A stretch of DNA of 64,000 nt, from the IMG/VR virus record IMGVR_UViG_3300012020_000005, positions 1 through 64,000 of that record; one strand, given 5' to 3'. How positions within the stretch are numbered: position 1 is the stretch's first letter; every line of letters starts with the position of its first letter. Positions 4,868 to 30,578 of this stretch are shown here, in pieces. Below the pieces are notes generated by a model. It saw nothing but the letters and a program-made list of their open reading frames with translations. It was not told the DNA's origin and searched no databases. A program made the translations under genes and the position numbers. The DNA is from a virus (taxonomy: Duplodnaviria; Caudoviricetes).

Positions 4868-5034
4868 GACTTAAATTGTATTTTGGATTAATTTTATTAC
4901 ACTTACTTAGGATATTGTTGAGCATATTTACTCTGTTCTTTTTAGTTCTTTTTGCGCCGATTTTAATATTTGTAAGAAAAAGAACATTTTATTATTGTAT
5001 AGATGAGTTTTATAAAAATTTAAAATAACAGAAA

Positions 5035-5271: not shown

Positions 5272-5468
5272 ACTCAATAGAGAGCAGAGGTAGAAAACAT
5301 CTATTAGTAATTCTATCTGATGGAGAATACTTTGAAGTGTTTCAATTTGGGGGAGAGGTATATACAAGCGTCTCGGATGGAATATTAAAGTCCACTCTTT
5401 GTGAGTTTAAAAAAGATGTAAAACAATTTGATTTTGATGAAAAACAATTAACTAAATTGTGGATATGA
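5259..5468 (+). CDS. hypothetical protein
   Basis: Co-oriented overlapping ORF. Confidence 0.55.
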   Translation: MRKINSIESRGRKHLLVILSDGEYFEVFQFGGEVYTSVSDGILKSTLCEFKKDVKQFDFDEKQLTKLWI

Positions 5469-5714
5469 GTTGCAACAATCATAATAAAGAAACAGAAAGA
5501 GAAGAGTTTTTACAAAGTTTAAGAGAATTAGTAATATACACCTTACCAATAGATTGTAGAGATGATGAAGATATTATAGAAACTTATTTTCAATCTTTTC
5601 TTTTGGCGTGTGAAGATTATAAAAATTTAAAATAATGCAAAAATTCATAGTTAAAAACATAAATAAATTATTAGGAATATTTATCATACTACTAGCAATC
5701 TTAATTATAACAAT

Positions 5715-8308: not shown

Positions 8309-8332
8309 ATAATAAAAATAGAATAGTAAAAA

Positions 8333-11897: not shown

Positions 11898-12200
11898 ATG
11901 AAATGGTTAAAAAATTTATTTAATAAAAAAGAAAGTAATAATGGTATTGATAAACCAAGATGGATTACTAAAGATAATTTTAAAATTAAAAAGTGTTCTG
12001 ATGATACAGGATATGAAAAATACTATGTTTTATGTAATGTATATGAAGAAAAAGTTTGGAGAGAACCTTATGGAGCAAAATTTGGTTTTGATAGTTTAAA
12101 GGAAGCAAAAAAATTAATTAAAGTAGATATAAAATGGTGGCAGGATTTGTATATAAAAGAAACCACTAGAAAATGTGAAATAATTGATTTTGATTTATGA
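11898..12200 (+). CDS. hypothetical protein
   Basis: Co-oriented ORF. Confidence 0.6.
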   Translation: MKWLKNLFNKKESNNGIDKPRWITKDNFKIKKCSDDTGYEKYYVLCNVYEEKVWREPYGAKFGFDSLKEAKKLIKVDIKWWQDLYIKETTRKCEIIDFDL

Positions 12201-12448
12201 ATCCTAAAAGAACAATAGAGTTAGCTCATAAACTCGTAGTGTTGAATTTCCTCATTCAAGAATTACTAGACGAACTCAACCCAAGAACGGCGGAAATAAA
12301 AGAATACAGAGAAACTTTATTAAAACTAACAGAAATGTTAAATAACGAAATAGCCGACACAGAAGCTATTCAAAGTACCCTGTATTTCCAAGATTTAAGT
12401 AATAAAGTAGATACAATAATTAGAAAGAATTTAAATATAGAGTTATGA
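12197..12448 (+). CDS. hypothetical protein
   Basis: ATGA overlap with the previous gene. Confidence 0.6.
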   Translation: MNPKRTIELAHKLVVLNFLIQELLDELNPRTAEIKEYRETLLKLTEMLNNEIADTEAIQSTLYFQDLSNKVDTIIRKNLNIEL

Positions 12449-12828
12449 AACTAATTAATAAGGATAGCGTAAGTCACATTTCGATATATAAACCAAGAGA
12501 GGGTTTTAAGGTATCAGGTAATTGTTTTTGGAAGTATACTTATTATGCTGATGAGTACTTCAAATTATTTTGGCTTTTTCCTATAAAAACTTTAGATGCG
12601 GGCTTTTACAGGAGTGGTAAGAAAAGTAATTGGTATAAAATGGATAATAATTATTTTGATAAGAGTAAACATTATACCTTATTAAATGAAGTTTATACAA
12701 AATCCCATATTGATATTTTTTCTGCGGGAATAAAAATACACACAGAATATTTTGAAGACTACAAAGACTTAGAAAAACATATTAAAGACAACTATAATAA
12801 TTGTACTATTAGATATGAGAATAAATAA
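12445..12828 (+). CDS. hypothetical protein
   Basis: ATGA overlap with the previous gene. Confidence 0.6.
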   Translation: MKLINKDSVSHISIYKPREGFKVSGNCFWKYTYYADEYFKLFWLFPIKTLDAGFYRSGKKSNWYKMDNNYFDKSKHYTLLNEVYTKSHIDIFSAGIKIHTEYFEDYKDLEKHIKDNYNNCTIRYENK

Positions 12829-13033
12829 AGAACAATTAGAGTCAGTTGGTTTATTTCAATATCCTAAACAGCCTCATTTATTTGGAGACCTTGAAGATAT
12901 TGAATTTAATCAAAAAACCAATGAGTTATTTTATTTTAACTGGGTTGATGGCTATACAGAATTATATAGAAAAGTAAGAGATTTTGAAGATTTAGTAATT
13001 GCCTTATATGACGGATTTAATTTAGATTTTTAA
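12815..13033 (+). CDS. hypothetical protein
   Basis: Co-oriented ORF. Confidence 0.55.
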   Translation: MRINKEQLESVGLFQYPKQPHLFGDLEDIEFNQKTNELFYFNWVDGYTELYRKVRDFEDLVIALYDGFNLDF

Positions 13034-13065
13034 TTTCGCCGTAAAAAATAAAAAACAGAATAATT

Positions 13066-13287
13066 ATGGAAACACCAAAAGAAGTTAAGGAGTGGGCAGA
13101 AAGAATTATGAGTTTAAAAAGAAAGACTTGCATAGAAGATATTGTTAATTATTTCAATGCAAGATATAAAAATGCCACAATAAAATATGAAGAAGATAAC
13201 TTTATAATTGAGGGAGATGAGAGCGAATCTTTAGAAATTGCCGAAGACTTAAAAGATATGTTGAATTTTTCCGCAAAAAAGGATTAA
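13066..13287 (+). CDS. hypothetical protein
   Basis: Co-oriented ORF. Confidence 0.55.
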   Translation: METPKEVKEWAERIMSLKRKTCIEDIVNYFNARYKNATIKYEEDNFIIEGDESESLEIAEDLKDMLNFSAKKD

Positions 13288-13293
13288 AAACAG

Positions 13294-13479
13294 ATGAAAA
13301 AACACTACAATTATAAACAACAAGACTACTACATTCAAGAAACAATAGAAATGAAAGACCCATCCACACGAAAATGGTTAAAAGCTTATATCTATATTCA
13401 GATAAGTAGTGGTAAAAAGTTTTGTAGAGAAATTGAAGAGTTTGAGAAATTATTTAAATTTGAGGGGGTATATAAATGA
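13294..13479 (+). CDS. DUF1653-like small protein
   Basis: Size and the pattern Y..Y....YIY......KKFCREIEEF..LF resemble DUF1653. Confidence 0.4.
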   Translation: MKKHYNYKQQDYYIQETIEMKDPSTRKWLKAYIYIQISSGKKFCREIEEFEKLFKFEGVYK

Positions 13480-15437
13480 GTAAGTTTAATTTAGATGGGG
13501 CATTAGTAGTCGACATAGAAACAAGGGGATTATTAGACAAACTAAAGTCTAAAGAGGACTTACACGTTATGTCTGTTGGTTGGAAGTCTAGTGGTCAATG
13601 GAATATAAAGTCTACAAATAAAGAAGAGGATATTGCTAAAGTATTTGAAAATCCTAATAATACTATTGTAGGACATTTTTTTCTCGCTTATGACTTACCT
13701 GCCCTTAAAATAATGTTTCCAAATATTAATTTTAAAGCAAAGATTATTGATTCTCTAGCCTTGAGTCACTATTTATCAAATGATAGATTAAAGCACGGGC
13801 TTGAGGACTATGGTATTGAATTTGGATATGAAAAAGTAAAGATTTCTAATGAAGAGTGGGAAAATCTTGACTATGATAAAGCAGAAGCAAGATGCCGCCG
13901 AGATGTTGAAATAAATTGTATACTTTGGGATAAACAATTAGCCTTACTTAGAGAGTTGTATGAAACAGATGATGAAATTCATTCTCCTATTGCTAGGTGT
14001 AACTTTAAAATGCAACTCTTACATATACAAGAAAATAATAAAATTAAGCTTGATGTTGAACTGTGTAAAAAAAACCTAAAATTTTTAGAAGAAATTATTC
14101 AAAAAAAGGAGATAGAACTAAATTCTATCTTACCTCCAATTAAAAATATTGTAGTAAGAAAAAAGCCTAAAAATTTATACAAAGCAAATGGAAAACTTTC
14201 TGTGGTTGGAGAAAAGTGGTTAAATATGATTAAACAACTCAACCTACCTGATGATTATGATGGAGATATAAATGAAATAGTTTCAGAAACTCCACCAAAC
14301 TGTCAATCAACAAAACAGATGAAGGATTATCTTCTATCAAAAAATTGGAAACCTAAGTTGTTTAAAGATGGAGCTAATGGAAAAGTCCCACAGTTGAGAG
14401 ATGATAATAAGGAATTATGTAGTAGTATAAAAGAGTTAATTAAAGAAGTGCCTGAATTAGAAGCATTAGATGGGCTATCTGTTGCACAGCATAGAGCAGG
14501 CTATTTAAAGGCATTTTTAGACACTATGGATGATGATGGTTATGTAAAAGCAGGTTGGTCAGGAATGGCAAAAACTTTTCGTGTAAAACATAATAAACCA
14601 ATAGTTAATCTGCCCTCAAATAATTCTCAATATGGAGACTTAGTTAGAAGCTGTTTAATTGCTCCCGAAGGGATGTTATTTGTAAACGCAGATTTAAGCT
14701 CATTAGAGGATAAAACAAAGCAATGTTGCATATATCCCTATGACCCTAAATATGTTGAAACTTTAAATACTCCTGGATACGATGCACACTTACGTATTGC
14801 AGAGCTAGGAAATTTTATGTCTGAAGATGAAATTAAATTATTTAAGTGGTATAAGGATAAAAATAAAAACTTAGAAGATTTACCTGAAGTATTTAAAGTT
14901 TATACGGAAGAGGAGTTATCAGAGCAGTTCGTAAGGTTGTCAAAGGTTCGTCATACTTGTAAAACTACTAATTATAGTGCAACTTACTCTGCAAGTCCTA
15001 AAAAAATTGCAGAAACAGCGGGGGTTGCTCTTAAGATAGGGCAAGCTTTACACAAAACTTATTGGGATTTGAATTGGAGTGTTAAGAAATTTACAGAAGA
15101 TTTAAAAGTAAAAACTGTTGACAATAGAAATTGGATTTATAACCCTTTTACTAAATTATGGCTTTTGCTCACAGCAGACCATATTAAATTTTCGGCATGT
15201 AATCAAAACTTTGGAGCTTGTGTATTTGACACTTTTTTGTGGTTTTTAATTCAATCAGGTATTAAGCCAATTATGACAATACATGATGAGCTAAGCTTCT
15301 ATATACCAATAGGTTACGAAGATTGGGCAAGAAAGGTTATAAAAGAAAGTATGGACAAAGTAAATGAAATTTTTAATCAACCTATAAAGTTTGAATCTGA
15401 ACCTGAGTTTGCAACTTCCTATGGAAATGTACATTAA
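13476..15437 (+). CDS. polA: family A DNA polymerase with N-terminal 3'-5' exonuclease (T7-like)
   Basis: VDIET exonuclease motif, motif A NADLSSLE, motif B R..CKTTNYSATY, motif C IHDE. Confidence 0.9.
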   Translation: MSKFNLDGALVVDIETRGLLDKLKSKEDLHVMSVGWKSSGQWNIKSTNKEEDIAKVFENPNNTIVGHFFLAYDLPALKIMFPNINFKAKIIDSLALSHYLSNDRLKHGLEDYGIEFGYEKVKISNEEWENLDYDKAEARCRRDVEINCILWDKQLALLRELYETDDEIHSPIARCNFKMQLLHIQENNKIKLDVELCKKNLKFLEEIIQKKEIELNSILPPIKNIVVRKKPKNLYKANGKLSVVGEKWLNMIKQLNLPDDYDGDINEIVSETPPNCQSTKQMKDYLLSKNWKPKLFKDGANGKVPQLRDDNKELCSSIKELIKEVPELEALDGLSVAQHRAGYLKAFLDTMDDDGYVKAGWSGMAKTFRVKHNKPIVNLPSNNSQYGDLVRSCLIAPEGMLFVNADLSSLEDKTKQCCIYPYDPKYVETLNTPGYDAHLRIAELGNFMSEDEIKLFKWYKDKNKNLEDLPEVFKVYTEEELSEQFVRLSKVRHTCKTTNYSATYSASPKKIAETAGVALKIGQALHKTYWDLNWSVKKFTEDLKVKTVDNRNWIYNPFTKLWLLLTADHIKFSACNQNFGACVFDTFLWFLIQSGIKPIMTIHDELSFYIPIGYEDWARKVIKESMDKVNEIFNQPIKFESEPEFATSYGNVH

Positions 15438-15551: not shown

Positions 15552-15768
15552 TTGAAAATTAATCAGTTCTTTTACTGTTTTTAATTTTTTTACGGCGAAA
15601 ATAAAAAAATAATAAATTATGAAAACAATATTAATACTACTTATAGGAATATTTATTGAAAAATTTTATAGTCCTAGACTTAGTTGGGTTAAAGAATCTT
15701 CTGTTCTTTTACTTTTTTATTCGGCGAAAAATATTAGAAAACGATTAATACTTTTTAAAATTTAAACT

Positions 15769-16348: not shown

Positions 16349-16365
16349 GTAAATAGTAGTTTTGC

Positions 16366-16491
16366 CAATAACGGTATAGCTTGTAGCCGTATGCCAATAA
16401 AAACAAAACTAACTTAAAATTAAACACAATGAATACAAAACAAATTGAAAATTTAGCCGAAAACGGCAATAAGTCAAAACCGCTGCTATAA
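16366..16491 (+). repeat. attC-like site J1 (degenerate; GCT instead of GTT)
   Basis: CAATAAC at 16366-16372 ... GCTATAA at 16485; weak stem. Confidence 0.55.
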
Positions 16492-16501
16492 GCCGTTTTT
16501 T

Positions 16502-16765
16502 ATGATAGAATATTTTAACCGATATAGTAACACAGATTTACCAGATGATATGGGTAGATGGGCAAGAATAGCAATTTTTAAAAACATTAGAATTGCTTGG
16601 ATTAGCAGATTAGAAAATAAAGGAAAAGTTATATTTAGTGTTTCTTGCCATTTTCCAACTATGCAAAATGATACTGCAAATGAATACAAAATATGTCATT
16701 CATTAGATGAAGCAAAAGAGTTCGTCAATGAGCGTTGGAGTTGGTTTCTAACATCAGTTTCTTAA
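16502..16765 (+). CDS. hypothetical protein, cassette A
   Basis: Bracketed by GCTATAAGCCGTTTT (16485) and AAAATGGCTTATAAC (16764-16778). Confidence 0.65.
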   Translation: MIEYFNRYSNTDLPDDMGRWARIAIFKNIRIAWISRLENKGKVIFSVSCHFPTMQNDTANEYKICHSLDEAKEFVNERWSWFLTSVS

Positions 16766-16771
16766 AATGGC

Positions 16772-16864
16772 TTATAACGGTTGAGTATTGGCAAAATGCC
16801 ACCAGTACAAGCTTTCAAATTAGGCACAAACTATCTGTGGCATTTTGCCAATACTATGTTATAG
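16772..16864 (+). repeat. attC-like site J2
   Basis: AAC 16778; perfect 19-bp inverted repeat 16784-16802/16837-16855; GTT 16858. Confidence 0.85.
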
Positions 16865-16909
16865 GTAGTTGTTTTAAAAATTAGCGTTGGCATTAAAAAC
16901 ACAAACACA

Positions 16910-17092
16910 ATGGGAAATATGAGTTATTGCAGGTTTGAAAACACCTACGGAGATTTACAAGATTGCTACGATGCACTTGGAGAAAAATCATTAGATGAAC
17001 TTTCTGAAACAGAAAAAAAGTATGCAAAGAAGTTGATTAAAATGTGCAGAGAAATTGCTGATGATTTTTTGGAAGATGAAGATGATGAGTAA
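16910..17092 (+). CDS. hypothetical protein, cassette B
   Basis: MGNMSYCRFENT; bracketed by a 22-bp inverted repeat 16858-16879/17108-17129. Confidence 0.7.
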   Translation: MGNMSYCRFENTYGDLQDCYDALGEKSLDELSETEKKYAKKLIKMCREIADDFLEDEDDE

Positions 17093-17122
17093 CGGTGCGG
17101 TGGGGATTTTTAAAACAATTCC

Positions 17123-17258
17123 CTATAACTGTCTTCAACTTGCTCGTCGTTGTGGCGAATGAGCCTAAAACTTAACAAATAACAACTAAATTTTAAAATT
17201 ATGACCAAACTTTCAAACACAGACCCAATGCCCCAATGCGTGCAAACCGATGTTATAT
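17123..17258 (+). repeat. attC-like site J3
   Basis: AAC 17129; imperfect stem; GTT 17252. Confidence 0.7.
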
Positions 17259-17440
17259 GCTGTGATTTTTTCAAGCAAAATATCAAAGAATACGGATGGT
17301 TTAAATTAGACCATTTAGGAGAAGAACAATATTTAATGCCTCATATTTTAGGCACAAAAATTAGAATAAATTATTGTCCAACTTGTGGAAAAGAATGCAG
17401 GGATACTGTTTTAAGTACAGATTTGTATCATAGCATCTAA
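17201..17440 (+). CDS. hypothetical Cys-rich protein, cassette C
   Basis: ATG lies in J3; stop codon is the TAA of TAAC; CPTCG knuckle. Confidence 0.6.
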   Translation: MTKLSNTDPMPQCVQTDVICCDFFKQNIKEYGWFKLDHLGEEQYLMPHILGTKIRINYCPTCGKECRDTVLSTDLYHSI

Positions 17441-17569
17441 CGTTTTGCTACTACAAATCGTTTGGGATTAAGTAAACCAAAATATTCGAGTACTCACGAA
17501 TAAAAACAGGTACAAACTAATTTTTAAATTAATCACAGTTACCCAAATGTTTTGTAGTAGCTGTTATAA
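17435..17569 (+). repeat. attC-like site J4
   Basis: AAC 17441; 20-bp stem 17447-17466/17542-17561 with 2 mismatches; GTT 17563. Confidence 0.85.
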
Positions 17570-17581
17570 GTAGCTTTTATT

Positions 17582-17812
17582 ATGCTTACAATTAAATTAC
17601 TAAAAGAATTGATTAAAGACGTTCCAGATGATGCTATATTTTCTTCAATGCGTTTTGGAAATAATAACGAAATGGATTTTTTTGTTATTAAAAGAGCGTT
17701 ATTAGTTGAAGGTAGTAGAAATAAGTTTTTTGTGTTAAACCAAATGGGGACACATTGGGGAGAAAAATGGGAAAAAGGAGAATATAAAATAATTAAAACA
17801 ATAGAAAAATGA
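17582..17812 (+). CDS. hypothetical protein, cassette D gene 1
   Basis: Directly after core 17563. Confidence 0.6.
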   Translation: MLTIKLLKELIKDVPDDAIFSSMRFGNNNEMDFFVIKRALLVEGSRNKFFVLNQMGTHWGEKWEKGEYKIIKTIEK

Positions 17813-18030
17813 CACAAACAATAGAATGTAAATGTGGTAAAACTTTTGCCGCATCAGGAGTTCCTTATTGCTACACAAATGAGCAATGGCAAGAAGATTT
17901 AAGAGAATACGTAAAACAAGGTTGTACAGTTTCTTTAGTTGAAGATGATAAAGTACAATTTCAACAATGTACTTGCAATGAATTAGATGAACTTAAAGGC
18001 ATTTTCGACACCGTTGTTCTTTTGGAGTAG
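17809..18030 (+). CDS. hypothetical protein, cassette D gene 2
   Basis: ATGA overlap; ends before the inverse core 18041-18055. Confidence 0.6.
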   Translation: MTQTIECKCGKTFAASGVPYCYTNEQWQEDLREYVKQGCTVSLVEDDKVQFQQCTCNELDELKGIFDTVVLLE

Positions 18031-18048
18031 CGATTGTCCTAAAGTTAC

Positions 18049-18180
18049 TTATAACGTTAAGGTGCTTTGCAATATGGCGGTTTCAAGGCACTGCACCTTC
18101 AATTTAGAACTAATGTTTAATCAAGGCACTAACACTGAATTTTGCACTTCACCCGCCATATTGCAAAGCACGTGTTATAG
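18049..18180 (+). repeat. attC-like site J5
   Basis: AAC 18055; perfect 19-bp inverted repeat 18062-18080/18153-18171; GTT 18174. Confidence 0.85.
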
Positions 18181-18198
18181 CCAGTTAATTTTAATCAA

Positions 18199-18411
18199 AT
18201 GTCAAAATTAAATTTGTATCAAAGAAGAAAACAAGAGTGTGGTTATGTTCATGGGATGTACAAACCCGATAAAGCTGATTTTTATTTAATCAAGCAAAAT
18301 GTAGATGAGTATCTAATTGCTTATTTTGATGGGGAGTTTTGGGAAAGTAAAGTAGATAGGCTTATCTGTTGGAGAGAAATACCTAAATCGGATATTTTAG
18401 CTCCGTTTTAA
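18199..18411 (+). CDS. hypothetical protein, cassette E
   Basis: Bracketed by GTTATAGCCAGTTAA and TTAATTGGCTATAAC. Confidence 0.6.
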   Translation: MSKLNLYQRRKQECGYVHGMYKPDKADFYLIKQNVDEYLIAYFDGEFWESKVDRLICWREIPKSDILAPF

Positions 18412-18415
18412 TTGG

Positions 18416-18509
18416 CTATAACGTGATGCGTATATGAGAAGTGGCACTTGTAGAATGTTGAAATTTAGCACAAATGTTTATGTGCCATTTCTTATATACG
18501 CTGTTAGCA
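18416..18509 (+). repeat. attC-like site J6
   Basis: AAC 18422; 20-bp stem 18428-18447/18482-18501; GTT 18503. Confidence 0.85.
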
Positions 18510-18600
18510 GTAGTACGGATTTAAACCACAAATGCTCAATCAAAGAACTGAACCTTTTTCTTTTCTTTTTTGTGCGGTTGGAAAATAAAAAATTAAAAAT

Positions 18601-19422
18601 ATGATTGAGATAAATAAAAATTACAACGAAAGCAATTTAGAAACAATGGAGAAAATGCCTGATTGCTTTGTGGACTTAACGGTAACAAGCCCACCTTATG
18701 ATGGATTAAGAACATATAATGGTTATTCATTCCCTTTTGAGGATATTGCAAATGAGTTATTTAGAATTACAAAAGATGGTGGTGTATTAGTTTGGGTTGT
18801 TGGTGATGCAACTGTGAAAGGTAGTGAAAGTGGAACTAGTTTTAAACAAGCATTGTTTTTTAAAGAGGTAGGTTTTAATTTGCACGATACAATGATGTAT
18901 AGAAAGATAAACTACATACCATTAACACATAATAGATATGAGCAGGAGTTTGAGTATATGTTTATTTTTAGCAAAGGAAAGCCTAAAACCTTTAATCCAA
19001 TAATGGTTGAATGTAAAACAAAAGGAAGTAAAACAAAAGGCAGAACATTTTACCAAACAAATAGCCAAAATAAACCAACAGAAGCGCACAAAAACGATGC
19101 CGTAAAAGAATACAAACAAAAAGGAAATGTATGGGAAATACCTACTAATGCAGGCACAAAAGGACACCCCGCACAATTCCCTGAGCAATTAGCTAACGAC
19201 CATATTATATCATGGTCTAATGAAGGTGATTTAGTTTACGACCCATTCATGGGAAGCGGAACAACAGCAAAAATGAGTATCTTAAATAACCGTAATTGGA
19301 TTGGAAGCGAAATATCTTCTGAATACTGCGATATTATTGAAGAACGAATTAAAAAAGCGTGGGAAGAAAAAAGAAAAGAAAAAGATTTAACGCAGAAAAC
19401 TCTATTCGTAGATGGAATGTAG
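18601..19422 (+). CDS. beta-class DNA amino-methyltransferase (SPPY; possibly m4C), cassette F
   Basis: Motif IV DLTVTSPPY, GHPAQFP, motif I DPFMGSGTT. Confidence 0.9.
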   Translation: MIEINKNYNESNLETMEKMPDCFVDLTVTSPPYDGLRTYNGYSFPFEDIANELFRITKDGGVLVWVVGDATVKGSESGTSFKQALFFKEVGFNLHDTMMYRKINYIPLTHNRYEQEFEYMFIFSKGKPKTFNPIMVECKTKGSKTKGRTFYQTNSQNKPTEAHKNDAVKEYKQKGNVWEIPTNAGTKGHPAQFPEQLANDHIISWSNEGDLVYDPFMGSGTTAKMSILNNRNWIGSEISSEYCDIIEERIKKAWEEKRKEKDLTQKTLFVDGM

Positions 19423-19428
19423 TATTAC

Positions 19429-19561
19429 TGCTAACGGCACTTGGCTTGTGGTCAGGTGCGGAATTTGAAAAACAAAACTTAAAATATAGAACGAATGATG
19501 ATAGTAGAACAAATGTTGAATAACGCACCAACCCCGCTATTGCATATAGCCGATGTTAGTG
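19429..19561 (+). repeat. attC-like site J7
   Basis: AAC 19435; partial stem (GGTGCG/CGCACC); GTT 19555. Confidence 0.7.
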
Positions 19562-20286
19562 GCAGTGCTTTGTTCAATGCTGATTGTATGGATATTTTAC
19601 CTCTTATTCCTGATAAATCGGTTCAACTCATTTTGGCAGATTTGCCTTATGGAACTACTAATTTGAAATGGGATAGTGTGTTAGACCTAAACAAGTTGTG
19701 GCAAGAATACGAAAGAATAATTACTGATAATGGTGCAATAGTTTTAACAGCATCTCAGCCATTTACAACGGTTTTAATAAACTCAAATCCTGCATTATTC
19801 AAATATGAATGGATATGGTTAAAAGATAAACCAAACAACTTTGCACTTGCTAATAAAATGCCAATGAAATATCACGAAAACGTGTTGGTTTTTTATAAAA
19901 AACTGCCAAAATACAATAAGCAAATGGAAAAACGAGATGGTGGTGGAAAAAGGTATAAATATGCAGTAAACTATGAAAACCAACAAAGCGAACATTTAAC
20001 GCTAAAAAATGGTGCAAAGTTTTTTGATATGGAATTTAAAAACCCATCAAGTGTGCAAAAATTCTCAACAGGGAGAAGGCAGGATTTAAAACACCCAACA
20101 CAAAAACCGTTGGAAATGATGAAGTATTTTATTGCGACATATTCAGATGAAAACGATTATGTTCTTGACAATACAATGGGAGTAGGAACAACTTGCGTAG
20201 GAGCAAAGGAGTTGAACCGAAAGTTTATCGGGATTGAAAAAGAGGTAAAATATTATGACTTAGCAGTTGCTCGTGTGTTCGGGTAG
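19495..20286 (+). CDS. beta-class DNA amino-methyltransferase, cassette G
   Basis: LILADLPY, HPTQKP, DNTMGVGTT; start codon lies in J7. Confidence 0.9.
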   Translation: MMIVEQMLNNAPTPLLHIADVSGSALFNADCMDILPLIPDKSVQLILADLPYGTTNLKWDSVLDLNKLWQEYERIITDNGAIVLTASQPFTTVLINSNPALFKYEWIWLKDKPNNFALANKMPMKYHENVLVFYKKLPKYNKQMEKRDGGGKRYKYAVNYENQQSEHLTLKNGAKFFDMEFKNPSSVQKFSTGRRQDLKHPTQKPLEMMKYFIATYSDENDYVLDNTMGVGTTCVGAKELNRKFIGIEKEVKYYDLAVARVFG

Positions 20287-20292
20287 CATTGC

Positions 20293-20391
20293 CACTAACG
20301 TTTTGCGGCTTTGTGTCTGTTTGCCCCTTGCACATAGCTTCAATTTACCACAAATATTGATGGGGCAAATAGCACAAAACCGCTGTTATAA
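20293..20391 (+). repeat. attC-like site J8
   Basis: AAC 20299; stem 20305-20327/20362-20383; GTT 20385. Confidence 0.85.
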
Positions 20392-20461
20392 GCTGGCTGC
20401 GGTTAATTAAACGAAAATATAAATACGAAGAACAAAACAACTTTTAATAAATTTTTAAGCG

Positions 20462-20995
20462 ATGGGAATAGATAAAATAGGAAATAAGAAAAACTCATTT
20501 ACGAGTAATAGTATTGAATACAGCACACCTTTGGCGATAGTTCAGCCATTAATAAACGAATTTGGAATAACAAAAGATGTGTGTGCAAGCCAAACAAACC
20601 ATAAGTTACCTGACTATTGGAATAAAGAAGATAATGCTTTGACAAAGGATTGGATTGGTAACTGCTGGATGAACCCGCCATTTGATAGAAACTTGGCAAA
20701 GTGGGTAAGAAAAGCATCTGATGAAGCCGATAAAAATGGAGGAACAAAGGTTTGTTTGATACCTGTTAGGAGTAATACTAAATGGTGGGCTGAACTATCA
20801 ATAAAATCGGAAATTCGTTTTATCAATGGCGAAGTAAATTTCAATGATGAACCAAGAGGTTTATGGATGGGAATGTGTATAATCATATTCGGAGAAAAAG
20901 CTAAAAAAGGAACATTCAGTATTATTGATTACAGGAGCGTTGGCAAAAATTTATTAAAAGTTGAAACGGAATTGTCAAACGAAGCAGGAACGTAG
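20462..20995 (+). CDS. phage Dam-like N6-adenine methyltransferase, cassette H
   Basis: YSTP, DVCAS, CWMNPPF, LIPVRSNTKWW, IRFING. Confidence 0.85.
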   Translation: MGIDKIGNKKNSFTSNSIEYSTPLAIVQPLINEFGITKDVCASQTNHKLPDYWNKEDNALTKDWIGNCWMNPPFDRNLAKWVRKASDEADKNGGTKVCLIPVRSNTKWWAELSIKSEIRFINGEVNFNDEPRGLWMGMCIIIFGEKAKKGTFSIIDYRSVGKNLLKVETELSNEAGT

Positions 20996-21003
20996 CAGAT
21001 TGC

Positions 21004-21083
21004 TTATAATAGGCGCGCGCTTGGCGTCAGGCTTGTGAGCTTGCTCCAAGCGTGGAGTTGGGCGAAGGGCGCGCCTATTGGGC
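21004..21083 (+). repeat. attC-like site J9 (GC-rich; AAT/ATT variant ends)
   Basis: Perfect inverted repeat AATAGGCGCGC 21008-21018 / GCGCGCCTATT 21069-21079. Confidence 0.7.
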
Positions 21084-21110
21084 AAAGGTGCTGTGCGCCT
21101 TTTGCCCAAC
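21077..21110 (+). other. gene-less 34-bp mini-cassette I
   Basis: ATTGGGCAAAGG...CCTTTTGCCCAAC between J9 and J10. Confidence 0.6.
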
Positions 21111-21236
21111 GGTTTGGGGCTTTACGTAGTGGGGGATTATACCCACAAAAGCCCAATAGAATTACAAAAGTATAATAAAAGCACAAAAGTATGATAGAAG
21201 AACAAAAGCCCCCATTACGTAAAACCCCTGTTAGTA
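21104..21236 (+). repeat. attC-like site J10
   Basis: AAC 21110; 20-bp stem 21116-21135/21209-21228; GTT 21230. Confidence 0.85.
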
Positions 21237-21856
21237 GCAGTACGGGTAATAGTGATTGGTCTGGCAACAAAAATTCAATTTATAAAACGCTTGGGGCTTC
21301 CAACCATACGGATAAGGAACGCCAAAGTGAAGATTATTACGCAACTGAACCGAAAGCAGTTGAATTGCTTTTAGATTTAGAGGACTTTTCACAACTATAT
21401 GTTTGGGAATGTGCCTGTGGTCAAGGTCATTTATCGGAAGCAATGATAAAAAAAGGAATAAAAGTAAATTCAAGTGATTTAGTTTTAAGAGGATATGATA
21501 AGGCTTATATGTATGATTTTTTAAGCGAAGAAAACAAAGAGTGGAAAGGTCATATTATTACAAATCCACCTTATAAATTCGCAAAGGAATTTGTTTATAA
21601 AGCATTATCAATAGTTCCAAATGGTTGTAAAGTTGCAATGTTTCTAAAAGTTCAATTTTTAGAAGGTAAGGCACGAAAGAAACTATTTGAAATATATCCA
21701 CCTAAAACTGTTTACGTTTCAAGCAGTCGTTTATTATGTGCCAAAAATGGCGAATTTGAACAAATGATTGCTGGTGGTGGTTCGGCTGTTGCTTACGCTT
21801 GGTTCGTTTGGGAAAAAGGATTTAATGGTCAAACAGAATTACAATGGTTCAATTAG
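21191..21856 (+). CDS. DNA amino-methyltransferase (NPPY), cassette J
   Basis: DYYATEP, WECACGQGHLS, IITNPPY, AYAWFVW; start codon lies in J10. Confidence 0.85.
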   Translation: MIEEQKPPLRKTPVSSSTGNSDWSGNKNSIYKTLGASNHTDKERQSEDYYATEPKAVELLLDLEDFSQLYVWECACGQGHLSEAMIKKGIKVNSSDLVLRGYDKAYMYDFLSEENKEWKGHIITNPPYKFAKEFVYKALSIVPNGCKVAMFLKVQFLEGKARKKLFEIYPPKTVYVSSSRLLCAKNGEFEQMIAGGGSAVAYAWFVWEKGFNGQTELQWFN

Positions 21857-21875
21857 CAACGAATGGTAGTATTGC

Positions 21876-22006
21876 TACTAACGGACGGCGATTGTCGTGG
21901 TTGGGATAAAACAAAGACTGATAATTAAATTTAAAACTAAACTGAAAAATGAAAACAAATGTAAAAGTTAAAGACAAAACCCAATCACTACAATCGTATG
22001 TTAGTG
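21876..22006 (+). repeat. attC-like site J11
   Basis: AAC 21882; 17-bp stem from 21889 with 2 mismatches; GTT 22000. Confidence 0.8.
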
Positions 22007-22434
22007 TTTCGGTTACGGCTTCCGAGTTGCGAATAGGGAATTTAGTACACTTTCCTTTTACGGCAGAAAATGTAAAAGTATTAGGAATTAATGCTCGTGA
22101 ATATAAATCTGAAATAATTCATACAATCTCTTTTGAAAAAGGAACGAATTTATATTGTGAAAAGCCTTCTGTATTAAAACCTATCCCATTGTCGAATGAA
22201 TGGTTAGAAAAATTAGGATTTTATATTGTTTCTGATAATGAATATAAAACAAGATTTGATATTCTAAAAGAAGGCAGAATTGATTTTATAAGAGTAAAAC
22301 ACGAATTGTGTGATTCTGGAGTTCGGTTTGAAGGAGCTATGTTGAAAGGAATTGATTATGTACACCAATTGCAAAACTTCTATTTTATAATTACTGGCTC
22401 GGAATTGCAGATTGGTTCTATAACTGAACACTAA
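21949..22434 (+). CDS. hypothetical phage protein, cassette K
   Basis: ELRIGN...KPIPLSNEWLEKLGF...HQLQN; start in J11; stop is the TAA of TAAC. Confidence 0.7.
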   Translation: MKTNVKVKDKTQSLQSYVSVSVTASELRIGNLVHFPFTAENVKVLGINAREYKSEIIHTISFEKGTNLYCEKPSVLKPIPLSNEWLEKLGFYIVSDNEYKTRFDILKEGRIDFIRVKHELCDSGVRFEGAMLKGIDYVHQLQNFYFIITGSELQIGSITEH

Positions 22435-22483
22435 CGTTTTGCAGCTATGCGCTCGTTTTAATGGCGCATAGGTGCTGTTATGC
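22429..22483 (+). repeat. attC-like site J12 (shortest, 55 bp)
   Basis: AAC 22435; CTATGCGC/GCGCATAG stem; GTT 22477. Confidence 0.85.
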
Positions 22484-22544
22484 GCTGGCACGGTTGATTA
22501 AACGATAAACTTAAATTGAAACACAAAACAAAATTTTTATTAAA

Positions 22545-22763
22545 ATGAGCGAGGGTAAAAAAGCAAAAGAACTAATTGATAAGCACCGTAAATGGGTTAA
22601 TCAAATTGATGGCAGTTACTCCGAAACAGAGTATGCTAAAAAAGCTGCGCTTATTACCGTTAATGAAATTCTTGAAGTAGAAAGCAAGAAAATGATAAAC
22701 GGTGATGTGAATGAATATGATTATTGGGAACAAGTAAAAAAGAAAATAAATGGCAGTATTTGA
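22545..22763 (+). CDS. hypothetical protein, cassette L gene 1
   Basis: After core 22477. Confidence 0.6.
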   Translation: MSEGKKAKELIDKHRKWVNQIDGSYSETEYAKKAALITVNEILEVESKKMINGDVNEYDYWEQVKKKINGSI

Positions 22764-23271
22764 TAAAGAAAAATTGTTTGATGCAGAGAAGGTAAACAAA
22801 AGCCTTGAAAGCATTGTGTGGGGAACACCAACAGAGTTGTTTGCCCCGATTGATAAAGAGTTCAGATTTACACTTGACGTATGTGCAATATCAGAAAACG
22901 CAAAGTGTGAAAGGTTTTTTACACCACAAGATGACGGACTTGCCCAAAGTTGGGAGAATGAAGTTTGCTGGTGTAATCCACCATACGGGAAAGATGTAGT
23001 AAAGTGGTGTAAAAAAGCATTACAGGAAAGTAAAAGAGGGGCAACAACGGTATTGCTGATACCTTGCAAAACGAACACAAATTGGTGGCACGACTTTGTA
23101 ATACCTTATGCTGAAATTCGTTTTTTGCGTGGCAGAGTGGCTTTTGTTTACCCTAACGGAGAGCAGAGCAAACAAGCATTACCGTGGCCGCTTGCTTTTG
23201 TCATTTATCGTGGGTCGGAAGATTTTAATAAAAATTTTGAACCGCAAACTCTTTTTGGAAACGAAATGTAG
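22750..23271 (+). CDS. phage Dam-like N6-adenine methyltransferase, cassette L gene 2
   Basis: WGTP, FTLDVCA, WCNPPYG, EIRFLRGR. Confidence 0.85.
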   Translation: MAVFDKEKLFDAEKVNKSLESIVWGTPTELFAPIDKEFRFTLDVCAISENAKCERFFTPQDDGLAQSWENEVCWCNPPYGKDVVKWCKKALQESKRGATTVLLIPCKTNTNWWHDFVIPYAEIRFLRGRVAFVYPNGEQSKQALPWPLAFVIYRGSEDFNKNFEPQTLFGNEM

Positions 23272-23278
23272 TGCTTGC

Positions 23279-23409
23279 GTATAACGGCTACGGCTATGTG
23301 CAGTAGCGGATTTGAAACACAAAACTTAAAATTATGATACGAAGATTATTTGAAAAACTAAGGCTGATTAAACCACGTCAGCCGCACTTGCCACAAACCA
23401 ATGTTAGTG
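23279..23409 (+). repeat. attC-like site J13
   Basis: AAC 23285; partial stem; GTT 23403. Confidence 0.7.
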
Positions 23410-23588
23410 GCAGTTTTAAAGAGTGGTATTTAGAATTTCGCAACGAAATGGCAAAATCTTTTGGTGTTAATTATAGCATTTCTATTGCAAGTTGGACTTT
23501 TAGTGAAAATCATAAACACTATTACGATAGGGGACTTACACCAAAAGAGGCAGTATTGGAATATGCAGCGTCAAAAAATTGCCACTAA
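23334..23588 (+). CDS. hypothetical protein, cassette M
   Basis: Start in J13; stop is the TAA of TAAC. Confidence 0.6.
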   Translation: MIRRLFEKLRLIKPRQPHLPQTNVSGSFKEWYLEFRNEMAKSFGVNYSISIASWTFSENHKHYYDRGLTPKEAVLEYAASKNCH

Positions 23589-23719
23589 CGGTTAGTATAT
23601 GGAAAGTAGGCGATAGGAAGGTATGAACCAATGGAAGCCTAAACGACACACTAAAACAAGGACAAGAGCCTTGAAATGTTACCAAGTGTTTAGCCTATTT
23701 TTTATATACATTGTTATGT
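23583..23719 (+). repeat. attC-like site J14
   Basis: AAC 23589; GTATAT...TAGGC/GCCTA...ATATAC stem; GTT 23713. Confidence 0.8.
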
Positions 23720-23824
23720 ACTGTATAGTGACTTTTAAGCAATAAACTTTAATTAAAGAACGAAACTAAGTAATAATATTTTGTGCGGTGGCAAATTGCT
23801 GAGGCACGAAGCAAAACAAAGACA

Positions 23825-24799
23825 ATGATTAAACTATACAAAGGCGATTGCCTTATTGAAAGCGATAAAATAGAAAGTGGTAGTGTTGATTTGATATTAA
23901 CTGATTTGCCATTTGGTACTTTAAAAGGTGCTACATTGACAAGTTCAAAAACAAGAAACAATGAGTATTCTTGGGATAATATTATTGATACGAATAAAAT
24001 TTATAAGATAGCAAACAGAATACTTAGGAAAAACGGTAAAATGTTATTGTTTTGTCAAGAGCCATTTACAACTGAATTGATAAACAAAGCAATACCAAAT
24101 ATACCTTTAAGTTATAGAGCAATATGGGAAAAGAATGATTTTGCAAATTGTTTGTTTGCAAAAAAAGCAATGGTAAATTTTTACGAAGATATTCTAGTTT
24201 TTAGCAAAAATGAAGATACAGAAAAAGCACACCCTTTGAGAGAGTATTTTTATACTGAATACGAAAAAACAGGTTTGACCTATAAAGAAATAAACAGAGA
24301 TTATTTAGAAACCACTTTTGAAGGTGGCGGTGGAATGGCTTACAATATGCTTTGTAGAACACGTTTGTATTTTAGTATGCCAACAGAAGAGGCTTATAGT
24401 AGATTGCAGAAAACTGGATATTTTAAAAAGCCTTATGAAGAGCTTAAAATAGAAGACGAAGCGTTTAAAAACAAAATGAAAAGCACATTTAACCTTTGGG
24501 AAGGTAAAAAATACAAAAGTAATATACTTAAATACAAAAAAGATTATGATGGCTACCACCCAACGCAAAAGCCAGTTTTATTGTTAGAGGACTTAATAAA
24601 AACTTTTAGCAACGAAAATGATTTAGTAGTTGATTTAACTATGGGTTCTGGTAGCACTATGGTAGCCTGCAAAAACACCAATAGAAACGGAATAGGTATT
24701 GAAATGAATGACGAGTATTTTAGTATTGCTGAGAAAAGGGTGGAAAAAAATATTATTACGACTGGTGAGCAAACAAGTATATTAGACGAACTGAACTAA
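23825..24799 (+). CDS. beta-class DNA amino-methyltransferase, cassette N
   Basis: LILTDLPF, YHPTQKP, DLTMGSGST; ATG 23825 preferred over the track start at 23783. Confidence 0.9.
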   Translation: MIKLYKGDCLIESDKIESGSVDLILTDLPFGTLKGATLTSSKTRNNEYSWDNIIDTNKIYKIANRILRKNGKMLLFCQEPFTTELINKAIPNIPLSYRAIWEKNDFANCLFAKKAMVNFYEDILVFSKNEDTEKAHPLREYFYTEYEKTGLTYKEINRDYLETTFEGGGGMAYNMLCRTRLYFSMPTEEAYSRLQKTGYFKKPYEELKIEDEAFKNKMKSTFNLWEGKKYKSNILKYKKDYDGYHPTQKPVLLLEDLIKTFSNENDLVVDLTMGSGSTMVACKNTNRNGIGIEMNDEYFSIAEKRVEKNIITTGEQTSILDELN

Positions 24800-24866
24800 G
24801 CTATATTGTACATAACTATTTACTAAGCGTTACTAAAGAGGTAAAACACTAATAAAATTAAGACTT

Positions 24867-28991: not shown

Positions 28992-30578
28992 ATGGGTAAA
29001 AAAAAGTATACACAAGAACAGATTGACTTTGTAACTAATTTGATTAAATTAAACGACTATAAAGTTACTCCTGCCACAATACTAATGTGTGAAAAGTTTA
29101 AGATAGACTACAATGAAAATGTAGGGAGAAGATTTAGAAAAATTATGCAAAAAATTGGAGTTACAAATAATGTAGTCACAATAGAAGATACTGATGTTTT
29201 TAAAGAAGCTCAAAATAAACAACACGATAACACTAAAAAAAGATACCTTATTAGTTGGGGACAATCAGATACAGCAATACATAAAAGGTTTCTTAAAAAT
29301 ATGGAAAACTATGCTGAATATATAGATGCTGACATATTAATAATCGCAGGTAGGTATTCCAATCCATCATCTTTATCTGCAAGTAAAGCTATAAAATCAA
29401 AAGAAAAAACTGTAAAAAATACATGGGATAACTCTATATTACCATATCTTGATGCAAATCGTCATAATTTACATGAACATTTAGTAGTCTTATCGGACGT
29501 CAAAATCCAACCTACAGCTTCTACACCACTTTCTTCATTAAATGGTCTTACAGGACTTGAAAGTTGTATTATAGGGCATCCTAGACAACATTTAAAGTTT
29601 CTACCTGTTTTAGATGGTTATCCAAGTAAAGTTTTATTAACTACAGGAGCATGTACAATTGAAAACTACACTGATACAAAAATTGGAAAATCGAGCGAAT
29701 TTAATCATGTTTTGGGATGTGTTATAGTTGAGTTAGATGGAGATATTTTTCATATTCGTCAAATTTGCGCTGATAAAAAAGGAGATTTTTATGACTTAAA
29801 TTACAAAGTCGAGCACGGTAATATCTATACTAATGACAAAATTGAAGTTGCTGTTCTTGGTGATATTCATTTAACGAGCGAAGACAAGGAAAGTGTAGAT
29901 GTTTCTTTTAGTATTTTAGAAAAATTTAAACCAAATCATGTTATTTTACACGATATTGCAGATATGTCGAGTATTAGCCACCATGAAAAACGTAATCCAT
30001 TTCAGCTTTTAATAAGAGAAGAAGATGGTTCTAATTCTTTAGAAAAAGAGTTAGATTATATCAGGAATTGGTTTAAAAATAGACCTGTATATAATTATGT
30101 TATTCCAAGTGCCAACCATAACAACTTCATTGACAGGTGGTTACAAAATGAAGATTGGCGAAAAGATGGGAATAAAAAACTTTATTTAGAGTTTGCTAAT
30201 ATAACCGCTAAAGGATTAGCTCCAAAAGGTATTATTGCCTATATTTTAGAGTCAGAGTTTGATTATATTAAATGCTTAGGTGTAGATGAATCTTATAATG
30301 TTTTGGGGTGGGAGTTGAGCCTTCATGGAGACAGAGGCGCATCAGGAAGTCGTGGTTCAGCAGTTCAATTTAAAAATCTTAATGTTAAGAATGTTACAGG
30401 ACACACTCATAGTGGTTTAAAACTAGATGGTCATTTATGTGTTGGTACATTAACTAAACTCAGAATGGGATATAATCTTGGAATGTCCTCATGGTCGGTT
30501 TCAAATGTAGTTATTTATCCTAATGGAAAAGCTCAACATATTCATATAACGAGAGGTAAGTATACTACTTTCTTTTAA
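28992..30578 (+). CDS. calcineurin-like metallophosphoesterase with N-terminal extension
   Basis: LGDIH, LHDIAD, SANHN, LHGD, TGHTH metal-binding motifs. Confidence 0.8.
   Translation: MGKKKYTQEQIDFVTNLIKLNDYKVTPATILMCEKFKIDYNENVGRRFRKIMQKIGVTNNVVTIEDTDVFKEAQNKQHDNTKKRYLISWGQSDTAIHKRFLKNMENYAEYIDADILIIAGRYSNPSSLSASKAIKSKEKTVKNTWDNSILPYLDANRHNLHEHLVVLSDVKIQPTASTPLSSLNGLTGLESCIIGHPRQHLKFLPVLDGYPSKVLLTTGACTIENYTDTKIGKSSEFNHVLGCVIVELDGDIFHIRQICADKKGDFYDLNYKVEHGNIYTNDKIEVAVLGDIHLTSEDKESVDVSFSILEKFKPNHVILHDIADMSSISHHEKRNPFQLLIREEDGSNSLEKELDYIRNWFKNRPVYNYVIPSANHNNFIDRWLQNEDWRKDGNKKLYLEFANITAKGLAPKGIIAYILESEFDYIKCLGVDESYNVLGWELSLHGDRGASGSRGSAVQFKNLNVKNVTGHTHSGLKLDGHLCVGTLTKLRMGYNLGMSSWSVSNVVIYPNGKAQHIHITRGKYTTFF

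Follow-up and report, generated by a model that had tools for sequence, protein, structure and literature searches.

The window, the whole stretch of 64,000 nucleotides (nts) that was analysed from an 81 kb phage record, carries between 16.36 and 24.82 kb on the plus strand a co-oriented chain of 14 segments (A to N), each bounded by GTT and AAC and each preceded by a junction (J1 to J14). An earlier note had described tandem GTT...AAC units and junctions here, and this observation was confirmed: all 14 units lie at the coordinates it gave, every gene of the array has the same orientation, and the ORFs of C, K and M indeed stop at the TAA of TAAC. The first AAC is at 16370-16372 rather than at 16366, where the note began the array. 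In the following list, z scores junction folding against dinucleotide shuffles, the own-end match compares the two ends of one segment over nine variable positions, and L001 and similar codes are other loci.

16361..16372, +, outer left box, ending in AAC; phage backbone common to L001, whose homology reaches window 16366
16369..16488, +, J1, decayed hairpin site, right core GCT instead of GTT; z -1.2; arms related to the intact L001 site
16485..16778, +, segment A, ORF 16502-16765 (87 aa), no PHROG match; own-end match 8/9
16775..16861, +, J2, hairpin site, 19-bp perfect stem; z -4.9
16858..17129, +, segment B, ORF 16910-17092 (60 aa); own-end match 7/9
17126..17255, +, J3, cores without significant stem, ATG 17201 of ORF C inside; z +1.1
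17252..17441, +, segment C, body of ORF 17201-17440 (79 aa), stop is TAA of TAAC; own-end match 7/9
17438..17566, +, J4, hairpin site, 20-bp stem; z -4.0
17563..18055, +, segment D, small ORFs 17582-17812 and 17809-18030, neither with a PHROG match; own-end match 8/9
18052..18177, +, J5, hairpin site, 19-bp perfect stem; z -4.8
18174..18422, +, segment E, ORF 18199-18411 (70 aa); own-end match 8/9
18419..18506, +, J6, hairpin site; z -4.6; same hairpin in L009, L020 and L014
18503..19435, +, segment F, N6/N4 DNA methyltransferase 18601-19422 (PF01555, E 6e-45); own-end match 8/9
19432..19558, +, J7, weak hairpin, ATG 19495 of methyltransferase G in loop; z -0.25
19555..20299, +, segment G, N6/N4 DNA methyltransferase, ORF 19495-20286 (PF01555, E 2e-27); own-end match 8/9
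20296..20388, +, J8, hairpin site; z -5.0
20385..21010, +, segment H, Dam-type adenine methyltransferase 20462-20995 (PF05869, E 5e-22)
21007..21080, +, J9, G+C-rich hairpin, cores co-changed from AAC to AAT and from GTT to ATT; z -4.95
21077..21110, +, segment I, empty 34-bp cassette consisting of two end boxes only; own-end match 8/9
21107..21233, +, J10, hairpin site, ATG 21191 of methyltransferase J in loop, right arm coding; z -2.9
21230..21882, +, segment J, DNA methyltransferase, ORF 21191-21856 (phrog_799, E 8e-61)
21879..22003, +, J11, hairpin site, ATG 21949 of ORF K in loop; z -2.0
22000..22435, +, segment K, ORF 21949-22434 (161 aa, phrog_10066), stop is TAA of TAAC
22432..22480, +, J12, short hairpin, 11-nt loop common to P12002L_attC1 and L014; z -4.6
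22477..23285, +, segment L, 72-aa ORF 22545-22763 and Dam-type methyltransferase 22750-23271 (PF05869, E 1e-31; phrog_21441)
23282..23406, +, J13, weak hairpin, ATG 23334 of ORF M in loop; z -1.6; related to L008 hairpin
23403..23589, +, segment M, body of ORF 23334-23588 (84 aa), stop is TAA of TAAC; own-end match 8/9
23586..23716, +, J14, A+T-rich hairpin site, 17-bp stem; z -1.1
23713..24816, +, segment N, N6/N4 DNA methyltransferase 23783/23826-24799 (PF01555, E 1e-32); own-end match 7/9
24817..24866, +, degenerate attI-like remnant of the junction and leader on the recombinase side; alignable with the L110-L112 sequence that separates the recombinase gene from the last cassette

The junctions follow the core pattern TAAC/G ... 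T/GTTA (a slash marks the boundary), and among 13 aligned sites the invariant stretches are limited to a left-hand AACG and a right-hand TGTTA. The left core is AAC in 13 of the 14 junctions and the right core GTT in 12, so that the window sites carry the inverse core and core of attC at their two ends; the double change in J9 preserves the closing pair. The distance from AAC to GTT is 41-123 nts. A core-plus-stem scanner detected such sites in the array only, and on the plus strand only, across the whole 81 kb record, and the G+C content of the array is 31-36.5%, compared with 26-30% in the flanks. The cargo consists of six orphan DNA methyltransferases (F, G, H, J, L, N) and small ORFs, and five junctions (J3, J7, J10, J11 and J13) hold within their loops the start codons of C, G, J, K and M, respectively. 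The phage of the window is a phage of marine flavobacteria.

Folding was strong (z -4 or lower) at seven of the 14 junctions (J2, J4, J5, J6, J8, J9 and J12), moderate (z -2 to -3) at J10 and J11, and weak (z -0.25 to -1.6) at J1, J7, J13 and J14, and J3 did not differ significantly from the dinucleotide shuffles. The claim of a hairpin at every junction is therefore convincing for about nine of the 14, and J1, J3, J7, J13 and J14 have a weak one or none. With z of -2 or lower at 9/14 junctions, the window sites resemble attC, an imperfect palindrome of about 57-141 bp and variable sequence; over 96 sites the length from TAAC to GTTA was 47-155 nts (median 121). As to the extrahelical bases that set strand choice in attC, the stem is perfect in many phage sites, and the asymmetry is in the spacers (5 nts left, 1 nt right) and in a T:G pair of the end boxes that is conserved in 50/64 cassettes. 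The gene strand is the better-folding one in 91 of 112 sites, and stem mismatches on it are G:T (191) more often than A:C (72). Such a G:T excess on the gene strand is also expected under selection for mRNA structure.

The hairpins could also be considered mainly as RNA elements (stabilisers, processing sites or devices for start-codon presentation), with the modularity reflecting phage mosaicism at conserved intergenic sequences. The enrichment of G:T pairs on the transcribed sense strand, the presence of the next gene's start codon with an A-rich leader in five loops, and the conservation of loop motifs are in line with this explanation. Against it, cutting of the stems by RNase III would destroy the coding right arms, and intrinsic terminators do not account for the stems: terminator-like matches numbered 8 versus 4.7 ± 2.9 expected, none of them coincided with a junction stem, and no T-tails follow the stems. 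An additional RNA role beside recombination may nevertheless exist.

The ends of the segments provide a different kind of evidence. In the window, the first 12 nts of a segment, read as reverse complement, agree with the last 12 nts of that segment at 7.4 of 9 variable positions, compared with 3.4/9 when the neighbouring box is used instead, and none of 100,000 permutations reached the own-end excess. The same was observed for 64 cassettes of other loci (own ends 6.7/9, adjacent ends 3.7/9; 0/20,000 permutations), so that the ends are mutually complementary, as in integron cassettes, in both sets. This private complementarity is the signature of cassettes joined through site-specific crossover.

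Variation among relatives was found at the same boundaries. L001 shares a 95% identical flank and, after the same first site, where its hairpin is intact, has different cassettes; other phage contigs contain about 100 more sites, all of them on the gene strand. One methyltransferase cassette is found in different surroundings, the breaks falling precisely at /GTT and AAC/. Among cultured Polaribacter phages, Freya_1, _5 and _10 are distinguished by entire cassette blocks, cut exactly at AAC/ beside the integrase and joined there to the integrase-side sequence. The Freya deletions have 13-20 nts of similar sequence at both ends, and short-homology deletion is possible there. Taken with the end complementarity, the differing cassettes of relatives and the Freya block differences support the proposal in the earlier note of a shufflable integron-like phage platform. 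Neither the mutual complementarity of each gene's two ends, nor base-exact breakpoints at AAC/ and /GTT, nor the dedicated recombinase at a conserved junction described below is predicted if the hairpins are mainly RNA elements, and we regard that explanation as highly unlikely.

The J7 hairpin and gene G are kept together in L008, as are J11 and K in L087, and at J6 the homology with L009 ends within a few bases of both cores. K homologues in L088-L090 begin at GTT, the J3 loop and right arm are also found upstream of the K homologue in L088 and L089, homologues of methyltransferase J align only from residue 15-22, i.e. past GTT, and the J10 hairpin is retained in L007 with arms altered on both sides. 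Hairpin and downstream gene are linked in 3 locus pairs, compared with 27 pairs that are alike only downstream. Because the hairpin interior often differs among copies of one downstream gene, a single crossover point would not account for all of the shuffling. The 3′ box of the empty cassette I is similar to the outer left array box in L001.

A 275-aa Xer/IntI-like tyrosine recombinase is encoded about 50 nts past the last cassette in all 18 assessable loci, and the junction on its side is conserved as TAAC/ATAnAATATGTA; this entry site separates the recombinase start from the final cassette. The protein has every catalytic residue. In the IntI insertion region the protein has 21 residues, compared with 63 in VchIntIA, its score against TIGR02249 is 165 bits, below the 265-bit cut-off, and its best sequence matches are archaeal XerA and XerC-like proteins. 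The integrases of Freya and Leef are 30-35% identical to it, and upstream of each there is an array whose end is TAAC/. Judged from these sequence features, the enzyme associated with the arrays of relatives is not a classical IntI. The complete-integron layout of an upstream, divergent intI with attI between was rejected, the relatives' recombinase being downstream of the array and in the same orientation.

The window is syntenic with G003, and its array end aligns with the recombinase-side leader. In the remnant at 24817..24866 the proximal conserved motif is lost and no recombinase gene follows; none was found in the 81 kb record, and it is likewise absent from the complete array-bearing phages G004 and G005. 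The segment F 3′ end, with the same box, adjoins the recombinase-side junction in L132. With 14 sites and no tyrosine recombinase the window has the structure of a CALIN, a cluster of two or more attC sites with no integrase near it, and its array can be described as CALIN-like because of the degenerate junction copy and the lack of a recombinase in 81 kb. The array might instead be an ordinary integron fragment, its attC sites being served by a classical host IntI and its cassettes having been acquired by the phage from an integron on a bacterial chromosome. Several classical cassette features favour this reading, namely cores of AAC and GTT, palindromes about as long as integron sites, and private complementarity of the R boxes. 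In addition, HattCI called a homologous site of Polaribacter phage P12002L attC (PMC9892861). However, of six phage sites, IntI1 failed to recombine just one, the P12002L site that is most similar to those of the window and has the J12 loop (PMC9892861). Furthermore, no intI with the IntI-specific insertion was found in the 81 kb record, the enzyme found beside such arrays in relatives is without it, the array polarity is opposite to that of classical arrays, and when the recombinase profile was run once against 185,579 species genomes, only one relative emerged, encoded on a MAG contig that is phage-like. An integron fragment of this kind is therefore unlikely.

The polarity is evident from the array ends. 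In the arrays examined, a hairpin always precedes the first cassette and never follows the last one; in the window, segment N ends in AAC with no hairpin after it. Both the ends of the arrays and the junction on the recombinase side agree with cassettes in which the hairpin comes before the ORF, so the reverse order given in the earlier note is replaced, and the integron-cassette arrangement, with attC at the 3′ end after the ORF, was not found in the array layouts compared. Every unit has a hairpin on its left, is preceded by TAAC and ends in TAAC; together with strict co-orientation and single-strand asymmetry, this would also suit single-strand transposons of the IS200/IS605 type, in which an HUH (Y1) transposase cuts beside hairpins and inserts 3′ of TAAC; the target of IS608 is TTAC. 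This origin can hardly be credited, as the units have one hairpin each and none at the right end, the record has no Y1 transposase (no PF01797 match), and the array-linked enzyme is an Xer/IntI-type tyrosine recombinase.

In our interpretation, the region is probably an array of 14 cassettes belonging to a site-specific recombination system that resembles integrons and circulates among phages of the Flavobacteriia and of further Bacteroidota. In the mechanism we propose, a cassette would have its hairpin site ahead of its ORF(s) and be bounded 5′ by GTTA-N5-AGT and 3′ by ATT-N5-TAAC, which would pair with each other in the circular cassette. In complete systems, cassettes would enter at the simple site beside the 275-aa recombinase, the presumed catalyst, with the crossover in the AAC triplet or at its edge and with the gene-sense strand as the folded one. 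The cargo of relatives, which also includes Mom, the Tad6 Thoeris inhibitor and RNA ligase, suggests that the platform would stock counter-defence genes together with the methyltransferases. With the recombinase gene absent and the entry site degenerate, the window array would be a stockpile that changes only when recombinase is supplied in trans, for example from a co-infecting phage; since the window is without the enzyme, its array may otherwise be static. We are also inclined to think that this is an undescribed phage-borne integron analogue, still active in cultured Polaribacter phages, with a compact Xer-like recombinase lacking the IntI insertion downstream of the array, a 5′ hairpin whose loop gives leader and start codon, a coding strand that folds, both hairpin edges as crossover points and counter-defence cargo. 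In the literature, we found no description of hairpins that enclose start codons, of the 275-aa recombinase or of its location downstream.

Integrons are the textbook bacterial device to stockpile and shuffle resistance and defence genes. The present results suggest that Bacteroidota phages possess an equivalent device of their own, in which the recombinase differs and the cassette layout is mirrored, and that they employ it to stockpile anti-restriction and anti-defence genes. This would explain the assembly of orphan methyltransferase islands in unrelated flavobacterial phages, and the recombinase would be a marker to mine unknown counter-defence genes as cassettes. If the 275-aa enzyme is the catalyst, hairpin-site cassette recombination does not need the IntI-specific domain. 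Freya and Leef phages on Polaribacter offer a cultured test system.

Compared with known systems, Xer recombinases (XerC/D-dif, archaeal XerA) match the array-linked enzyme in size and domains. Xer sites, in contrast to those of the window, are short and duplex, with 6-8 bp in their central region, and we know of no cassette arrays or hairpin sites served by Xer recombinases. The Freya and Leef integrases were read by their authors as lysogeny integrases that mark a possibly temperate lifestyle, in a report that does not mention the cassettes (Bartlau et al., PMC8776804); a phage integrase may not always be a sign of lysogeny.

Phage CALINs have been published by Qi et al. 2023 (PMC9892861), including that of P12002L with its methyltransferase cassettes, and the earlier note, which was not aware of such arrays having been characterised in Bacteroidota phages, is corrected accordingly. 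Those are likewise attC-like sites between orphan methyltransferase genes of a virulent phage, and P12002L_attC1, the closest published site, has the same core and loop as J12. That study reported 2-4 sites per virulent phage by classical attC models, compared with 14 in the window, and did not link them to a non-IntI recombinase; our core-plus-stem scan found at least four more sites of the window type in P12002L.

Classical integrons (IntI1, VchIntIA) share the co-oriented arrays of mostly single-gene cassettes, the AAC...GTT cores with variable palindromic arms and lengths of about 50-130 nts, a cassette 5′ end complementary to the inverse core of the same cassette, a simple entry site beside a tyrosine recombinase of the Xer/IntI branch, and the strand asymmetry of the fold. 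In contrast, the phage-array recombinase, at 275 aa, is without the insertion of about 40 aa by which IntI contacts extrahelical bases, and it is encoded downstream and co-oriented. The phage hairpin precedes its ORF on the 5′ side, where it may include the start codon, its stem is often perfect, with 5-nt versus 1-nt spacers and a conserved T:G pair apparently in place of the classical extrahelical bases, and the favoured strand is the coding strand.

Each segment of the array opens with 12 nt (starting at GTT) that are reverse-complementary to the 12 nt closing the same segment (up to AAC); we refer to these ends as boxes (5′ GTTA-N5-AGT and 3′ ATT-N5-TAAC). In the window, the two boxes of one segment matched at a mean of 7.4 of the 9 non-core positions, whereas boxes flanking one junction matched at 3.4, and the observed total was attained by none of 100,000 random pairings of the window segments. 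The same comparison in 64 cassettes of other loci gave 6.7 versus 3.7 of 9 (0 of 20,000 permutations). Such complementarity is expected if every segment was once a circle, its ends forming one site, and if the segments were joined by crossover at the conserved core. The second base of the 3′ box was T in 64 of 64 cassettes (window and loci), and stood opposite a G of the cassette's own 5′ box in 50 of them; this conserved T:G pair on the gene strand may be a recognition mark.

Between 16.36 and 24.82 kb, the genes all run in one direction and are separated by 14 junctions (J1 to J14, each preceding the segment of like rank, A to N), a junction extending from the base after AAC to the base before GTT. 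Apart from AACG at the left end and TGTTA at the right end, no stretch was invariant in 13 aligned sites; the arms between these cores vary in sequence and yet pair with each other. Judged against dinucleotide shuffles, folding was strong (z <= -4) at J2, J4, J5, J6, J8, J9 and J12 and moderate at J10 and J11, so that the hairpin which the earlier note had placed at every junction held for about 9 of the 14, while J1, J7, J13 and J14 folded weakly and J3 not at all. Its co-oriented array of 14 GTT...AAC units was confirmed by the core positions, the folds, the end complementarity and a core-spacer-stem scanner. The scanner was used in place of a covariance model, as a MAFFT alignment of the sites put several arms wrongly; over the whole 81 kb it reported no site outside the array and none on the minus strand, and sites that mismatch early, J8 and J12 among them, escape it. 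A terminator search led us to reject the junctions as intrinsic terminators, and an Rfam scan of the region returned no family for them, the hairpins giving only chance microRNA-like matches. The G+C content is higher in the array than in its flanks. The following two features fit the circular-cassette origin.

Junction J9: both cores altered jointly, from AAC/GTT to AAT/ATT, with the closing pair kept
Segment I: a 34-bp "empty" cassette, consisting of two boxes and nothing more

Searches with two cassette proteins gathered 102 IMG/VR loci, of which 15 carry arrays, with all their sites on the gene strand. In the contig L001, the flanking genes are 92-95% identical to those of the window and the first site is in common, and the cassettes beyond it differ. 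(L001 also has a 1.5-kb insertion with ORFs at 12148-13634, separating the polymerase gene from the one that precedes the array, which the window lacks at ~15612-15625.) A near-identical methyltransferase cassette was found in L008-L012 and L016 in differing surroundings, its homology starting exactly at GTT and stopping exactly at AAC; in L009 and L012 this cassette comes last and is followed by unrelated backbone. The J6 hairpin recurs in L009, L020 and L014, and in L009 the homology ends a few bases from both cores. At least five sites of the window type surround methyltransferase and Mom genes in Polaribacter phage P12002L, an unrelated siphovirus. The variation at GTT boundaries for which relatives were to be compared was therefore seen, with breaks exactly at GTT and AAC, and the view of the array as a shufflable accessory-gene platform is supported, with corrections, by the cassette differences among relatives and by the end complementarity.

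A candidate enzyme was found in a related phage contig, G003 (132 kb, 92% complete), which carries a six-site array. The AAC of its last cassette is followed by no hairpin, and ~50 nt past it starts a gene in the same orientation, encoding a 275-aa tyrosine recombinase. The best matches of this protein were archaeal XerA, XerD and integron integrases, none reaching the family cut-off, and the catalytic Arg, Lys, His-x-x-Arg, His and Tyr are all present. Its alignment with VchIntIA falls into two blocks separated by 21 residues versus 63 in IntI, so the IntI-specific insertion is missing; according to Smyshlyaev et al. 2021, this insertion is not conserved across the whole "integron-like" recombinase subgroup. 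Homologues with 60-86% identity occur on 17 more IMG/VR contigs and on one MAG contig labelled Chitinophaga. Wherever the upstream sequence sufficed (18 of 18 loci), a variable cassette box ending in TAAC is followed by the conserved ATAnAATATGTA, ~50 nt before the start codon. The recombinase loci have their hairpin sites on the strand of the recombinase gene, ahead of it and never downstream. In one of them, L132, the cassette touching this junction shares its 3′ sequence and box with window cassette F. In metagenomes, the family comprises at least 120 clusters annotated as XerD, with identities from 64% upwards (the best 120 of 2,251 hits). When one genome per prokaryote species was scanned, the MAG contig was the sole match, and the system therefore looks phage-borne. 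We found no paper in the literature on this recombinase-array system. Two loci differ in arrangement: in L118, the 273-aa array-linked recombinase is separated from the detected hairpin sites by a second, longer tyrosine recombinase (4561-5541, 326 aa, PF00589), and in L126 (~7620-9063) the array-linked gene is apparently split just after its first codons by an insert of ~240 nt (1,063-nt match, 275 aa), possibly an intron or an insertion of the homing-endonuclease type.

The window is an integrase-less version of this system, because its leader is degenerate, its gene order can be compared with G003 and 81 kb hold no recombinase trace. The 50 nt past cassette N align with the cassette-to-recombinase leader of L110-L112, with loss of the proximal conserved motif. 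The order in G003 is array, recombinase and BT4734-like gene, and in the window array, three small ORFs and BT4734-like gene. Searches of the 81-kb record for a tyrosine recombinase, for remnants of the array-linked one and for a Y1 transposase found none, and no tyrosine recombinase was found in two other array-bearing phage contigs, G004 and G005 (CheckV 100% and 98% complete).

In the cultured Polaribacter phages Leef_1 and Freya, an array of such sites precedes each integrase, which is 35% and 30% identical, respectively, to the array-linked recombinase. Freya_1, Freya_5 and Freya_10, isolated on a single host strain, share 99.9-100% identity outside two differing blocks (4.9 kb and 3.2 kb), which immediately precede the integrase. 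The two shorter genomes each have an internal cassette end (...CAAC) fused, base-exact, to what comes after the final AAC in Freya_10. At the level of sequence, these phages show an array that appears to have been recently active. The authors describing them read the integrases as possible signs of a temperate lifestyle and did not mention the cassettes (PMC8776804).

DNA methyltransferases are encoded in six window segments (three of the N6/N4 type, two Dam-type and one phrog_799 match), the others encoding small proteins without assigned function. Related arrays carry more N6/N4, Dam-type and C5 methyltransferases, Mom, an RNA ligase and a nucleoside deoxyribosyltransferase-like protein, and a cassette of L126 (1669-2355), with matching end boxes on either side, encodes a Tad6-family type I Thoeris inhibitor (PF25188, E 9e-42). 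This cargo fits a counter-defence stockpile.

The full record is 81,459 bp (completeness ~57% by CheckV estimate; the window is its first 64 kb), with a G+C content of ~29%, and encodes a family-A DNA polymerase and a DnaB-like helicase. Among cultured phages, those closest by polymerase are phi38:1, phi40:1 and Calle of Cellulophaga (~35% identity), and the host group is therefore Flavobacteriia or related Bacteroidota; megablast of the array flank against cultured phages gave no match. A 2,520-aa ORF on the minus strand (37746-45308) has no Pfam match and is possibly, given the kinship with phi38:1, the giant virion RNA polymerase of N4-like phages. A 528-aa protein (28992-30578), 37% identical to P12002L gp08, with a phrog_1745 "DNA transfer protein" match and a metallophosphoesterase stretch, is common to these two otherwise unrelated array-bearing phages; we rejected it as a candidate array enzyme, as it is a T5 A1-like "DNA transfer" metallophosphoesterase and probably unrelated.

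Qi et al. 2023 screened 10,705 phage genomes and described 17 attC clusters without integrase, one of them P12002L with two methyltransferases (PMC9892861), so the suggestion that such arrays were uncharacterised in Bacteroidota phages does not stand. IntI1 recombined five of the six phage sites tested, the exception being P12002L_attC1 (PMC9892861), which resembles the window sites, with a core and 11-nt loop identical to those of J12. Phage attC clusters are already known as a class, and the window-type site is not thereby shown to be an IntI substrate. P12002L_attC2, which IntI1 recombined, occurs twice in the P12002L locus (29195-29222 and 37221-37248) on the strand opposite the genes, and is not of the TAACG...TGTTA type.

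The relation of hairpin to gene was examined in the window and across loci. In window cassettes C, G, J, K and M, the start codon lies inside the hairpin loop and GTT is translated in frame; methyltransferase J has no alternative start codon, and its homologues align from just past GTT only. In the relative L007, both arms of the J10 hairpin have diverged and the gene is conserved. Among 112 distinct sites, 91 fold better on the gene strand, and stem mismatches on that strand were G:T in 191 cases versus A:C in 72 (p ~1e-13). This pattern indicates that the coding strand is probably the folded one; selection on mRNA structure, instead of folding of coding-strand DNA, would equally give it. In pairs of sites from different loci, breakpoints fall at both hairpin edges.

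Parts that are alike in site pairs from different loci
Hairpin interior alone: 22 site pairs
Downstream part alone: 27 site pairs
Upstream part alone: 8 site pairs
Hairpin and downstream part: 3 site pairs
Hairpin and upstream part: 0 site pairs

Classical linkage of the hairpin to its upstream gene was rejected on these counts, none of the pairs supporting it versus three for downstream linkage, and pure linkage to the downstream gene fails for several cassettes. The separation of hairpin and gene is not accounted for by a single crossover at AAC; recombination of near-symmetric hairpins on either strand is a possible cause of this hairpin swapping. The arrays open with a hairpin after a backbone box and close with a hairpin-free cassette abutting the attI-like entry site, and the inserted unit is therefore hairpin plus ORF. 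Whereas the classical integron cassette consists of an ORF followed by attC, the phage unit is its mirror, a hairpin followed by an ORF.
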